Shown here piece after piece: positions 30,608 through 36,500 of a stretch of 64,000 bases of DNA. Position numbers and translations under genes: made by a program. The notes under the pieces were generated by a model, which ran no database searches, was not told the origin of the DNA, and worked only from the letters and a program-made list of their open reading frames with translations. The DNA is from a virus: IMG/VR virus record IMGVR_UViG_3300035698_006717, positions 1-64,000 of that record. One strand, written 5' to 3'. Each line of letters starts with the position of its first letter. Position 1 is the stretch's first letter.

Positions 30608-30630
30608 AGTCTTTTACGCTGTAATGTTTG

Positions 30631-30665
30631 ACTGGAGGGTAGTTGCTTGCCCTCCAGTTTTCTTC
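30631..30665 (+). terminator. Intrinsic terminator-like hairpin
   Basis: ACTGGAGGGTA / TGCCCTCCAGT stem followed by TTTCTTC. Confidence 0.75.
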
Positions 30666-30684
30666 ACATTTAAAGGATACTGTC

Positions 30685-31188
30685 ATGCTAACTTTAGTAG
30701 AAGGTTTGAATTGTAGTGGTAAGACTACATATATAAAAAATCACAAATCACAAGTAATAGATACTTGGTATGCAAACCCACTAAGATGGGACAACTCAAA
30801 GAATTTGCTTATGGGTTCTTTAGAGAAGAAGGAATATTATGGCATAGGCGTATATGAAACTATACTGAGAATGTTCCTCAGCTCATATAGTGCACCAGAT
30901 TATTATTGGGATAGAACTTGGATATCAGCTTATGTATATAAGACTTTGACAAAACCTTCTTTTGATTTTATTTCTGACTTATACTGTGAAAATTGTGTAA
31001 AGGTTATTTGGCTAGATACAAATCCTTTTATCTGTAAGGATAGGTGGGAAGCAGAGAACAAGAAAGATGAAAAGGATTATGTTGTTAATTTTGATTGGAA
31101 GGGGTTGAGAGATGAATTTGAAACTGTAATGACAGAGTTAGATAAAATGGGGATGAATGTTGAAGTAATAACAAACTATGGAGTATGA
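30685..31188 (+). CDS. dNMP / thymidylate kinase-like P-loop kinase
   Basis: LVEGLNCSGKTT and WDRTWISAYVY; AAGGA SD before ATG 30685. Confidence 0.8.
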   Translation: MLTLVEGLNCSGKTTYIKNHKSQVIDTWYANPLRWDNSKNLLMGSLEKKEYYGIGVYETILRMFLSSYSAPDYYWDRTWISAYVYKTLTKPSFDFISDLYCENCVKVIWLDTNPFICKDRWEAENKKDEKDYVVNFDWKGLRDEFETVMTELDKMGMNVEVITNYGV

Positions 31189-32020
31189 AATGAAAAGATT
31201 CACATCAGGGAAGTTCCCTAAGTTGTCTGTATTATTGTATGCGCCTCCTATCTTCCCAGAGAAGGTTATAGCGCATAACTATCTTGAGTGTATTGAAGAT
31301 CGCCAGATAGATGATCCTACTGAGATTGATCTTGATGAAGCCAAGAAGATAACTGAATGGGTTATTAAAGGCGGCCATACTCCTGCTCTAGAGAGTTTGT
31401 ATATGGGGTTCAATATTAGAGGAATGAGTAAAGTAGTTTCTCACCAGATAGTACGGCATCGGATAGGGGTAAGTATAGGACAGAGGACACAAAGGGCTAA
31501 CTCAAAAGAGTACCTTGGCAAGTTTGCAGATGGAGAGCATTATATATTGCCTCCAAGTATAACTCTTGACACTTGTACTATTGACCCCAAAACGCAAGAG
31601 AATTTGAGAGAGTACCTGCAAGCTGCTCAAGATATATATAATGAATTGATTGAGCAAGGAGTATCTGAGGATGAGGCCAGATATATCATACCGCAAGGTG
31701 CAGAGACTTCTATGGACTTCAATATAATATTGAAAGCACTTATGGGAACAGCATCTACAAGATTATGCCATCTTATGCAGGGAGAGATGGTTGAAGTATT
31801 CCGATTGATTAAGAAAGCGGTTGATGATTGGCACCCTGGTATTGGTAGCCTTCTAAAACCTATTTGTATGGTAACAGGTAAGTGCAACCGTAATGAGAAT
31901 AATCCTATTGATGGCCATCCCCACGGAGTATGTGAGCTTACTGTTCGTGGATTGGTACCGCCAAGGGAAAAGGATGACACCTTCAACTTAACAAAGTATA
32001 GCAAAGATGCCGACAAGTAA
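31178..32020 (+). CDS. thyX: Flavin-dependent thymidylate synthase ThyX (divergent)
   Basis: GHTPALE, SHQIVRHR...QRTQR, EDEARYIIP and QGE motifs. Confidence 0.85.
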   Translation: MEYEMKRFTSGKFPKLSVLLYAPPIFPEKVIAHNYLECIEDRQIDDPTEIDLDEAKKITEWVIKGGHTPALESLYMGFNIRGMSKVVSHQIVRHRIGVSIGQRTQRANSKEYLGKFADGEHYILPPSITLDTCTIDPKTQENLREYLQAAQDIYNELIEQGVSEDEARYIIPQGAETSMDFNIILKALMGTASTRLCHLMQGEMVEVFRLIKKAVDDWHPGIGSLLKPICMVTGKCNRNENNPIDGHPHGVCELTVRGLVPPREKDDTFNLTKYSKDADK

Positions 32021-33344
32021 ACAAGGGAATATGGCGGAACTGGTAGACGCTGAGGATTTAAAATCCTCTAGCCTAGGCTGTGGGGGTTCGACTCCCCCTA
32101 TTCCCAAAATCATAATATTGGGAGCTGGCCCATCTGGTCTTATTGCTGCAAATTATTTGAAGTCTAAAGATATAGATTTCAAAATTATAGCAAAGGATGG
32201 GCACGGGTTCTCTAACATATCTACTCATGACTTCAAGTTTAAACTTGGTCAACGTACTATGTTCTATACTGATAGGATGCATAGCTTCCTTGAAGAGATG
32301 AACAATTATGCTGTTGAAAGTATGAATTTGAGTGATAGTATTGGTGTTGTATTTAAGGGAAAGTTGCACAAGTATCCTATACAGAATAATTTGAAGACAC
32401 TATCAATTAAAGATAGGCTGAGTTTCTTCATTAGCTATATTTTCAGGAGTAAGACAAAAGAATCTGATTATGCAAATTGGTCTTGTGCTAACTACGGTAA
32501 TTGGTTTGCTAACAACATACTACTTCCTCATACAAATAAAACTCTTAAAGAGGATTTGTATACTATTAATGCAGAATCGTATGGGAAGAAAGTTGTCAAG
32601 CTTGAATTGCTGAAGAAGAAAAGTAATTTGGCATTTGAAGAGCCTGATAAGATTCTTGCAAGGTTAAGAAAGAATGTTGAAATTCACATACAAGATGAAT
32701 TAGTTACAAGTATTGATACTAAATGCAAACAAGTTAGCCTTCAGTATAAGGGATGTGCTAGATTTGAAGATTATGATATACTGATAAATACTATTCCTAT
32801 ACTATCACTTATAGATCTGATGGAGTATCAGAATGATATCATAGAAGTAGCTACTAAAAGCCTTCAGTATAACAATATGTTTGCTGGAGTATTCATTATG
32901 CCGACTGCTATGATAAAAACTGATATGAGTATCATATACTTCCCAGAGAGAGATTACACTTTCTCAAAAGTCAATATAGATAGGCGTAATGGAATAACTG
33001 TTATAGTGTGTGAGTGTTCATTCAGAAGGAATGATGAGGACAAGTTTTCCTGTACTGCTTACAAAGAGAAGTTCCTTGAGCGCATAGAGTATGATTTGAA
33101 GAAGGCAAGATTGATAAGTAGTGATATGTTTGTATCTATTCAGAGAGATTATAAGATCATATCGCCTTGCTACATTATTACTGATAAGGATTACAATGCA
33201 AGTAATTCCTTCCTACAAGCTCACTTTGAGCACAAGGGCATTTTCAATTGCGGTAGATTCTCACAGTGGGTACCATGGATGAGAGTAGAACATAGCTTAG
33301 AAAGGATGGATAGTATATATGACAGTATTCTCAGGAGAATGTGA
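32007..33344 (+). CDS. FAD-dependent oxidoreductase, UDP-galactopyranose mutase / HemY-like superfamily
   Basis: IIILGAGPSGL, KYPIQNNL, LINTIP and CGRFSQW motifs. Start is ATG 32007 or 32031; both read through the tRNA. Confidence 0.8.
   Translation: MPTSKQGNMAELVDAEDLKSSSLGCGGSTPPIPKIIILGAGPSGLIAANYLKSKDIDFKIIAKDGHGFSNISTHDFKFKLGQRTMFYTDRMHSFLEEMNNYAVESMNLSDSIGVVFKGKLHKYPIQNNLKTLSIKDRLSFFISYIFRSKTKESDYANWSCANYGNWFANNILLPHTNKTLKEDLYTINAESYGKKVVKLELLKKKSNLAFEEPDKILARLRKNVEIHIQDELVTSIDTKCKQVSLQYKGCARFEDYDILINTIPILSLIDLMEYQNDIIEVATKSLQYNNMFAGVFIMPTAMIKTDMSIIYFPERDYTFSKVNIDRRNGITVIVCECSFRRNDEDKFSCTAYKEKFLERIEYDLKKARLISSDMFVSIQRDYKIISPCYIITDKDYNASNSFLQAHFEHKGIFNCGRFSQWVPWMRVEHSLERMDSIYDSILRRM
32025..32106 (+). 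tRNA. tRNA-Leu, anticodon TAA (no encoded CCA)
   Basis: Acceptor stem GGGAATA/TATTCCC plus discriminator A; D arm TGGCGGAACTGGTAGACGC; anticodon arm GAGGA-TTTAAAA-TCCTC; long variable arm; T arm GGGGG-TTCGACT-CCCCC. Confidence 0.93.
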
Positions 33345-33525
33345 TGGCTGTGGGAATTTAACCACTACATATTGCAATGGTAGCTTAGTGCTGAGAAAGA
33401 TTGTGAAAGTGGTAAGAGGTCTATTTATTGAAGATAGAATAATATTCTGTCCAGTGTGTGCCAAGGAAGGTAAGAAGATGATCAAGGCTCACAATCGTAA
33501 GATGAGGGGAATAGATGTCAAATAA
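33319..33525 (+). CDS. Small zinc-ribbon protein
   Basis: CxxC...CxxC; overlaps both neighbours. Confidence 0.6.
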   Translation: MTVFSGECDGCGNLTTTYCNGSLVLRKIVKVVRGLFIEDRIIFCPVCAKEGKKMIKAHNRKMRGIDVK

Positions 33526-36500
33526 AGATTTTGCACATATCCATTTGCATACTGAGTTCAGCTTCCTAGATGGGTTCAGTAAGGTATGGGATGATGACCA
33601 TAAAGAGCCGTCTGACTTGCCTTTACGCATAGCAGAGATAGGCCAGAAGTATTGCGCCATAACTGATCACGGTTCTACTGCTGGTTGGATTAGATTTGAT
33701 AAGGCTATGAAGAAAGTTGGTGTATCTCCTCTATTTGGTGTAGAGGGATATTACTGTGATGATATGAGTGTTAAGGGATTAGATGAAACTAGAAAGCTAG
33801 ATGCTACCAGAGGATTAACTAATGCCAAGGAAAAGAAAGCTGCCACTAAGAAGATGGAAAAGGAGTTGGGGCTAAATAAGAGAGCGCACTTTGTAGCCTT
33901 GGCTATGAATGCTGATGGCATACAAGAAATATTGAAGTCAACTTCCATAGCTGCAACAGAAGGATTCTATTACAGGCCAAGATGGGATTTTAGCCTAATA
34001 AAGAGTATGAAGAATTGCATCATAGGAACAGCTTGTGCTGGTGGCATTCTAAACTATTGGTGCAACAGAGAAGACCTGCCTATGAAGGAACGCTTACAGA
34101 TGGCTGTGAGAGAGGCTAAGAAATGGAAAGATGAATTAGGCGATAGGTTTTATCTTGAATTGCAATCCATAGATTGGTCAAGACAGACCAAGTATAATAA
34201 GTTTATTTGGAAGATAGCTCAGCATTTAGATTTGCCTTGCTACCTTGCTAATGACTCACATTATGTTAAGGCAGAGGACTGGGAAGCTCATGATATTCTT
34301 TTGGCAATACAGTCGGCTCACGGAGTACCTTCAAAGGATGCTCTGAATAATCCTGATAGGCTTAGATATGATATGCATGATCTATATGTCAAGACTAGGA
34401 AGGAAATGGCTCAGAGCTTTCTTGCTAGAAATGATGTAGATATATATGGTAAGAGTAACATATCAAAAATGTTAGACTGTACACTTGAGATAGCAGAGCG
34501 TTGCCATCATTCTGTGAATAAGAAGAAAATGATCATGCCTGCAATAGAGGTTCCTGATTTTGCTAAGTTGGATAAAACAAAAACTACTGATGATGATAGA
34601 AAGAATTATTTGAAGTATTTGTGCAAAGAGGGATGGCAGAGAAAAATTGTCCCTTATGTATCCAAGAAGGATAGAGTAGTATACAAAGAGAGACTGAAGG
34701 AAGAACTTTATCAGATCATTAGCCAAGGGTTTACCCCTTACTTCATTATGTGTAATGGTCTGATGAAATGGTCTGATGAGAAGGGCATAGCAAGAGGCCC
34801 TGCGCGTGGTAGCTCTGCTGGCTCCCTAGTAGCATACCTGTTAGATATAGTAATGGTAGATCCAATTCCTCACAAGCTATTGTTTAGTAGGTTTATTGAT
34901 CCAAACCGTACTGACTATCCAGATGTTGATATGGACTTTGGGGATTGGAGAAGGGGAGTGATTGTCCAATACTTTGTTGAGAAGTATGGCAAGGAGAAGG
35001 TTGCTATTCTTGGTAACAATATGACCTTCAAACCTAAGATGGCTCTCAAGGATGTTGCTAGGCTATATGGAGTTCCTATATTTGAAACACAAGAGCTTTG
35101 CAATTTAGTTGTGAATAGATCTGGAGCAGATAGTAGGCTGAGTTTCTGCGTTAAGGATACTTTTGATCAGCATGAGTTTGCTAAGGAATATGCTAGGAAG
35201 TATCCCAAGGTGGCAAAATTCTCTCAGCAGCTAGAAGGGCTAAAGAAGATACAGGGAGTACATGCTGCTGGAGTAGTTATAGCGGATGGAGACATAACTC
35301 AGTATACATCTATGAGATATGACAAAAGACAAAAGGACTTCCTAATTGCTACCATAGATAGGTATGACTGTGAAGATATAGGTCTACTAAAGATGGATAT
35401 ATTGGGATTGAATACTATGTCTGTACTTCAAGAGTGCCGTGTACTTATAAAGGAAAGGCACGGAGTATGGATAGACTTTGAGGAATTATGTAGAGATGTC
35501 ACATATAAAGGTGGAGATAAGAAAACATATGAGGCATTTGCTGACGCAAGGACTACTGGTATATTCCAGTTCAATAGCCCTGGCCTGACTCGTTTAGCCA
35601 AGCAAGTGAAGATAGAGAACTTTGATGAGATAAGTGACTGTACAGCCTTACACAGACCTGGCCCAATTCACGCTGGAGCTATGAATAGGTATCCTGCCCT
35701 AAAGAGTGGTGAGTTGGAGAAGTTTGACCCTTTGCACAAGATTGTAGAGGAAGAAACGCAAGACACCTATGGGCTAGTTATCTATCAAGAGCAGGTTATG
35801 CAGATAGTAAGGCGGTTGGGTAAGTTTGATTGGGCCCAAACAAATACAGTTCGTAAGGTTATGAGTAAGTCTGGTGGAGCAGAATACTTTATGACCAACT
35901 TCTGGCCTACCTTTAAGAATGGCTGTGCTGATGAAGGATTGGATGAAAAGACTGCCCTAAAGATATTCCATAGAATTATGAGCTTTGGATCATGGGCCTT
36001 CAATAAGTCACACTCTATCTCGTATGCGTTTGTTTCTTACTTTTGTATGTATATGAAGGTAAACTATCCCATAGAGTTCTGTACTGCTTATATGAATAAG
36101 GTAAATGATACAAGCGGTGAGAATGTACCTAAGATGGTGTTGGAGGCTCAGAGATTAGGGATCGGTATGAGAGAACCTGACATCAATATATCCAAGAGTG
36201 GATTTGTTATTGAGGGAAATACTATTGTATCAGGGCTGAGTAAGATAAAGAATGTAGGAGCAAAAGCTGTTGTTACTATATTGGAAAATCAGCCGTTTGA
36301 TGGTATTGTAGATTTTCTGATTAAGATAGACAATCGTGCTTGCAATAAAAGATCTGTAGAGAACTTGGTTAAGGCAGGAGCTTTTGATTCATTTGGTTAT
36401 GATAAGGGAGCTTTACTAGAGAATGTTGAAGCAATACTGAAGAATGTCAAGAAGGGTAATGATAAAAGCCTCAATATTGCTAAAGAGTTTGTAGATGGAT

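Follow-up and report, generated by a model that had tools for sequence, protein, structure and literature searches.

How can a conserved enzyme gene be translated when its only remaining canonical start codons lie inside or before a tRNA gene on the same strand? This question is raised by the genome of an uncultured phage (virus record of 105,409 bp, complete by CheckV, 38% GC), of which we analyzed the first 64 kb, hereafter the window. We searched the window and related loci for the history of this junction and for the start codons that remain available to the enzyme.

A tRNA-Leu(UAA) gene inside an open reading frame

The region of the junction contains the following features:

31178-32020, + strand: thyX, a flavin-dependent thymidylate synthase homolog (Pfam Thy1, E = 6.5e-29), with stop TAA at 32018-32020
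32007-33344, + strand: the whole open frame as seen by a gene caller (ORF calling), 445 aa, with no stop across the tRNA
32025-32106, + strand: tRNA-Leu(UAA) of type II with a long variable arm, discriminator A32106 and no encoded CCA (ARAGORN, Rfam)
32106-33344, + strand: conserved core of a flavoenzyme, 412 codons plus stop, UDP-galactopyranose-mutase-like (24-sequence alignment, PDB profile, Foldseek)
32106-32120, + strand: junction AAA ATC ATA ATA TTG, followed by GGA GCT GGC; it encodes beta-1 (residues 35-38) and has AAA at the position of the relatives' ATG

The initial annotation had described a complete tRNA-Leu(UAA), free of in-frame stops, inside the open frame of an FAD oxidoreductase on the same strand, and our analysis bears this out. 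ARAGORN called a tRNA-Leu with anticodon taa at 32025-32106 (+ strand) as the sole tRNA of the window, and no second tRNA was found in the complete virus record. The Rfam model RF00005 was matched over its full length (model positions 1-71) at E = 1e-11 with a score of 58.2 bits, the gathering score being 29, and the frame 32007-33344 runs through the tRNA without interruption. Relative to the homologous tRNA of the closest related locus (L003), 7 of the 29 base pairs differ on both sides, as compensatory changes, and none is broken, which suggests that the tRNA has been under selection in both lineages. Taken with the ARAGORN and Rfam calls, this comparison shows a genuine tRNA whose structure is maintained by selection.

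Two further differences from the L003 tRNA were observed. The encoded CCA of L003 is absent from the window (32106-32108), so that maturation of the window tRNA must rely on a CCA-adding enzyme of the host together with a 3' endonuclease. The acceptor stem has changed from GGGGGTA in L003 to GGGAATA in the window (32025-32031), with the 3' strand (32100-32106) changed to match. This shifts the run of G away from an ATG internal to the tRNA (3 nt vs 1 nt in L003), which would favor initiation at this codon but could also be due to chance.

The window has matches among Logan contigs from salt-lake metagenomes. Contigs over 31850-32155 and 32011-32163, originating from two salt-lake runs of different studies, reproduce the junction with 0 differences, which excludes an assembly slip, and the same variant was found unchanged in runs dated 2018 and 2019. 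These salt-lake runs also contain contigs of L003-like and L005-like relatives (window 31994-32161), indicating that at least three junction variants co-occur in that habitat. Among INPHARED phages, no relative of the locus was found and matches were limited to the tRNA. The genome-contig search returned only Nitrospiraceae proteins at 20% identity and gave no pointer to the host.

The C-terminus of ThyX (KYSKDADK followed by the stop) agrees with that of its relatives, so the TAA at 32018-32020 is the native stop. No terminator-like site was detected in 30620-34000, and thyX, the tRNA, the enzyme gene and dnaE are not separated by one. A promoter-like sequence inside the tRNA (32088-32116; 9/12 match) was discarded: the region contains 12 matches, vs 14.0 in shuffles.

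Conservation of the flavoenzyme

We aligned the window protein from K34 onward with 23 homologs (41-68% identity). The homologs begin with M or MK followed by four hydrophobic residues and GxG, and this beginning corresponds exactly to the end of the tRNA. All 40 invariant columns of the alignment (40/40) are retained in the window protein, as are 35 near-invariant family positions. The AF2 model presents a mean pLDDT of 87.9 and places beta-1 at residues 35-38, whereas the added residues 3-27 have a pLDDT below 50; natural homologs with short tails exist, such as P0011 with about 10 residues. Since the 40 invariant residues are kept and the fold is predicted with confidence, the enzyme is probably still needed and made.

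A PDB profile search matched UDP-galactopyranose mutase (UGM) with E = 3e-12 over the N-terminal FAD-binding half, and Foldseek aligned the model to 4dsg and 4dsh with TM scores of 0.76-0.77 at 16-18% identity. The Rossmann beta-1, the GxGxxG FAD site and the overall UGM fold are all recovered by profile, model and Foldseek, and by predicted fold the enzyme is UDP-galactopyranose-mutase-like. It resembles UGM of the eukaryotic type (PDB 4dsg, 3ukk) in overall fold and in the N-terminal FAD-binding half, but with so low an identity the likeness is known from fold and profile. A further difference from UGM is that the phage enzyme gene invariably occurs together with a phage thyX and a kinase gene. 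PHROGs contain no family for the enzyme. A search of IMG/VR with the single protein returned no match, and a search with the alignment returned one relative, which lacks the tRNA.

The kinase-like protein, a divergent ThyX and the UGM-like flavoenzyme (window 30685-33344) are encoded as a conserved, tightly coupled group of three that immediately precedes dnaE in eight related phage loci. Their association suggests a shared pathway, perhaps in nucleotide modification.

Open frames across other phage tRNA-Leu(UAA) genes

In a control set of 54 other phage tRNA-Leu(UAA) genes, 17 (~31%) have no stop in the frame that begins at tRNA position 7, and an open frame is therefore ordinary by itself. 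However, the frames that are open across the control tRNAs extend at most 97 codons beyond them. The longest (L065, the one inspected) contains a separate ATG past the tRNA, and none of the 54 controls carries a long gene that is fused downstream of the tRNA and lacks a start of its own. The window thus resembles gene-caller artefacts in that an ORF overlaps a same-strand tRNA through a frame that can be open by chance, but differs from them by the conserved 412-codon enzyme that follows the tRNA without its own ATG. The unusual feature of this locus is the missing start of that gene.

The codon TTA at 32058-32060 overlaps the anticodon (32059-32061). The initial annotation had pointed out that the anticodon loop is read as the very codon that this tRNA decodes. 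The reading is accurate, but it follows automatically, in one of the three frames, from U33 and the UAA anticodon.

Evolution of the thyX/enzyme junction

We further compared the junction across JGI/IMG loci. The order acidic protein, kinase, thyX, enzyme, small ORF and dnaE is common to eight metagenome or virus loci. In six loci without a tRNA, the enzyme starts at -4 to +1 nt from the thyX stop, and 5-8 codons precede GxGxxG. Starts that overlap or touch the thyX stop in this manner suggest that thyX and the flavoenzyme are translationally coupled in these relatives. For comparison, the nearest ATGs in the window are located 10 nt past the thyX stop and 14 nt inside thyX.

Among the relatives examined, a tRNA-Leu(UAA) at the junction was found only in L003 (contig Ga0207997_1000030) and in L004, which are identical to each other and closest to the window (68% amino acid identity). 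Their genes follow the same order, with the tRNA between thyX and the enzyme, at 49-83% amino acid identity to the window, and their tRNA is homologous to that of the window and lies at the same junction. After the tRNA, however, L003 presents an encoded CCA and a 13-nt spacer, CTAAGGACTCAAA, in which a ribosome site (AAGGA) and a TAA in frame occur; the enzyme then begins as ATG ATT GTA ATA TTA GGC. In L003 and L004, the enzyme frame is closed by stops in both the tRNA and the spacer. Relative to L003, the window lacks 17 nt after the tRNA and has AAA in place of the ATG. The initial annotation had proposed to align homologs from related phages as a check on whether the tRNA and the open frame are conserved, and they are not: the two relatives with a tRNA carry in-frame stops and a normal downstream ATG, a pattern that the initial annotation had itself named as refuting its proposal, and the others have no tRNA. 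Since L003 and L004 have their own ribosome site and ATG, the fusion of tRNA and enzyme represents a derived state of one lineage. From the compared loci, it appears to be an oddity of that lineage and not a conserved regulatory device. As only one independent relative carries the tRNA, the sequence of events proposed below draws on two lineages.

These results bear on the function first proposed for the arrangement, an evolved switch or feedback that would sense the supply of tRNA-Leu(UAA), e.g., after attack by a host anticodon nuclease, through competition between tRNA maturation and enzyme translation. Part of that proposal holds, as the geometry allows a given transcript only one of the two fates: processing of the tRNA at its 3' end would behead the enzyme message. 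TTA also represents 25% of the leucine codons genome-wide, so that the tRNA matters to the phage, and one TTA lies over the anticodon loop. But this last codon is forced by the tRNA itself, the enzyme gene uses TTA for only 3 of its 33 leucine codons, a sugar-mutase-like flavoenzyme has no link to tRNA supply, and the arrangement is absent from the nearest relative. We therefore consider an evolved sensor highly improbable.

The loss of the ribosome site and of the ATG raises another explanation, namely that the deletion ended useful translation of the enzyme and that too little time has passed for the orphaned gene to decay. The disordered tail, which has no look of selection, and the restriction of the arrangement to a single lineage are in line with a disused gene. 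On the other side, 412 codons have stayed intact in a genome of 38% GC with all invariant and near-invariant positions kept, the AF2 model is confident, the variant recurs unchanged between the two dated runs, and the length of the deletion is exactly the one needed to rescue the frame. Taken together, these observations make an orphaned gene rather unlikely.

The frame that spans the tRNA is also open in L003, where it forms a separate 33-codon ORF (L003:2903-3001) instead of being fused to the enzyme. This ORF starts at the tRNA-internal ATG (positions 7-9), covers the tRNA and the spacer, and ends with a TGA that overlaps the enzyme ATG (ATGA). Through this ORF, coupled translation may be passed on across the tRNA, and the passage of ribosomes over the tRNA may thus predate the fusion. 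The open tRNA frame shared by L003 and the window is only suggestive, with a chance of roughly 0.1 each in two related lineages that are not independent. In L005, a 122-aa ORF (L005:2627-2995) lies at the same thyX/enzyme junction and likewise ends on the enzyme ATG (ATGA). The thyX/enzyme junction seems to be a repeated insertion site.

Candidate start codons of the enzyme

As the initial annotation had stated, the window sequence contains no ATG or GTG between the tRNA and GxGxxG, and the only canonical starts in frame are two ATGs upstream:

32007-32009, + strand: upstream ATG, 14 nt into the end of thyX, without SD-like sequence (anti-SD duplex -0.4 kcal/mol)
32023-32027, + strand: SD-like AAGGG, formed by two spacer nucleotides and tRNA G1-G3, 3 nt before ATG 32031 (anti-SD duplex -4.5 kcal/mol)
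32031-32033, + strand: ATG at tRNA positions 7-9, 10 nt past the thyX stop; its use would add 25 residues before beta-1

We evaluated these starts against anti-SD duplex energies at long genes of the phage (median -5.8 kcal/mol) and at random positions (-2.1 kcal/mol). Among all candidates, ATG 32031 is alone in having an SD-like sequence, and it is most likely the present start of the enzyme. Two properties speak against it: the spacing of 3 nt is short, and folding of the tRNA buries both AAGGG and the ATG in the acceptor stem. The site at which RNase P is expected to cut (32024/32025) falls within AAGGG. SD sites are in use in this phage, with the motifs AGGAG, GGAG and AGGA concentrated at positions -14 to -9. 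ATG 32007 is a possible but weak start, which would add 33 residues.

After the tRNA, the near-cognate candidates are limited to ATC 32109, ATA 32112, ATA 32115 and TTG 32118, all without an SD sequence. A start at TTG 32118 would remove beta-1 according to the AF2 model, in agreement with what the initial annotation had claimed, whereas ATC 32109 would keep it. Another explanation that we weighed is that translation begins at ATC 32109 (M-I-I-L-G-A-G) or ATA 32112, the tRNA frame being open by chance and the tRNA and gene merely abutting as in a very tight operon. Indeed, the relatives begin exactly there, their M being aligned with K34/I35, and in an alternative alignment (CAAAATC in the window, CAAAATG in L003), ATC 32109 descends directly from the ATG of the relative. 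An open tRNA frame is common enough, as seen in the control set, and in E. coli reporters that offer a good ribosome site, AUA, AUC and AUU initiate at 1-2% of the level of AUG (bioRxiv 10.1101/063800). However, confirmed non-canonical starts in E. coli number just two, both AUU (bioRxiv 10.1101/063800). The anti-SD energies of +0.4 kcal/mol at ATC 32109 and +2.2 kcal/mol at each of ATA 32112, ATA 32115 and TTG 32118 are poorer than those at 81-99% of random positions, and the genes of this phage do make use of SD sites. No terminating ribosome would arrive nearby for coupling, and 3' processing of the tRNA would leave a message with a 2-nt leader and no AUG. A near-cognate start is thus rather unlikely.

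Two other routes were dropped. A thyX-enzyme fusion through a +1 frameshift at AAG-TAA-A offers no slippery re-pairing, and the GGGGG of the T-arm, which might have served ATC or TTG as a ribosome site from afar, is 20-29 nt off and paired.

A scenario for the fusion and its consequences

The reading that we favor, to which we give about an even chance, is that ribosomes make the enzyme on unprocessed transcripts by starting within or ahead of the tRNA, most probably by a restart at ATG 32031 after thyX, and that the mutual exclusion of tRNA and enzyme is a side effect of a tolerated deletion. The common ancestor of the phage and of the L003 lineage would have gained a functional tRNA-Leu(UAA) between the coupled thyX and flavoenzyme genes, L003 representing the state in which a ribosome site and an ATG downstream of the tRNA serve the enzyme. 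A net 17 nt would then have been lost from the window lineage, comprising the encoded CCA of the tRNA, the AAGGA site and the spacer, with the old ATG turned into AAA. As 17 equals 2 modulo 3, this loss put the enzyme into the frame that opens at the ATG of tRNA positions 7-9.

Based on the positions of these elements, we infer that unprocessed thyX-tRNA-enzyme transcripts are now the source of the enzyme. A ribosome that terminates on thyX at 32018-32020 would cover and melt the 5' acceptor strand, and could restart 10 nt further on at ATG 32031 with the aid of AAGGG; a start at ATG 32007 appears less likely. It would then cross the tRNA sequence, and the enzyme so made would carry 25 (or 33) additional, disordered residues. 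When a transcript folds instead, RNase P and the 3' endonuclease would cut it, which would release the tRNA and destroy the enzyme start. This partition would be a by-product of the tolerated deletion, with no evolved sensor. The initial annotation had stated that ribosomes must read through the tRNA; this is still the best reading but falls short of proof, with a weak start at ATC 32109 and a silenced gene as less likely alternatives. In addition to the points raised above against ATG 32031, an open frame is a roughly one-in-three event (17/54), which means that a disused gene could have been fused in frame by luck, and the alternative alignment derives ATC 32109 from the relative's ATG.

A more far-reaching form of this reading is that a working tRNA gene also supplies, on the same strand, the initial 25 codons of an enzyme gene that works as well, with every transcript split between the two, and that ribosome passage is older than the fusion, the mini-ORF of L003 relaying the coupling from thyX. 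We put it forward as a tentative possibility.

Comparison with known systems and significance

Cotranscripts of tRNA and mRNA are found in the thrU-tyrU-glyT-thrT-tufB operon of E. coli and in the tRNA region of T4. A processing model for such cotranscripts is presented in PMC2190699. As in these two systems, the phage tRNA would be cotranscribed with a protein gene and freed by RNase P and 3' nucleases. In contrast, the protein gene of those systems keeps a leader, a ribosome site and an AUG past the tRNA, and the window phage has none of these. In mitochondrial tRNA punctuation, the excision of tRNAs sets the ends of the mRNAs, and, as in the window, no spacer separates the tRNA from the coding sequence. 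But mitochondrial mRNAs begin at a usable start and are read by a ribosome adapted to leaderless messages, whereas excision in the phage would leave AAAUC and no AUG. A small literature search for described cases of a tRNA within a coding sequence in phages found nothing specific.

For annotation, trimming the coding sequence to the end of the tRNA would yield a gene without a start. If the gene is silent or initiated at ATC, the locus would be a small curiosity of one uncultured phage. If the enzyme does start at the ATG inside the tRNA, the same strand of DNA would encode a functional tRNA and a translated coding sequence, a natural arrangement that to our knowledge is undescribed. It would also provide an example of a phage rescuing a gene after the loss of its start signals, and a natural system in which the ribosome competes with RNase P and 3' nucleases on a single transcript.
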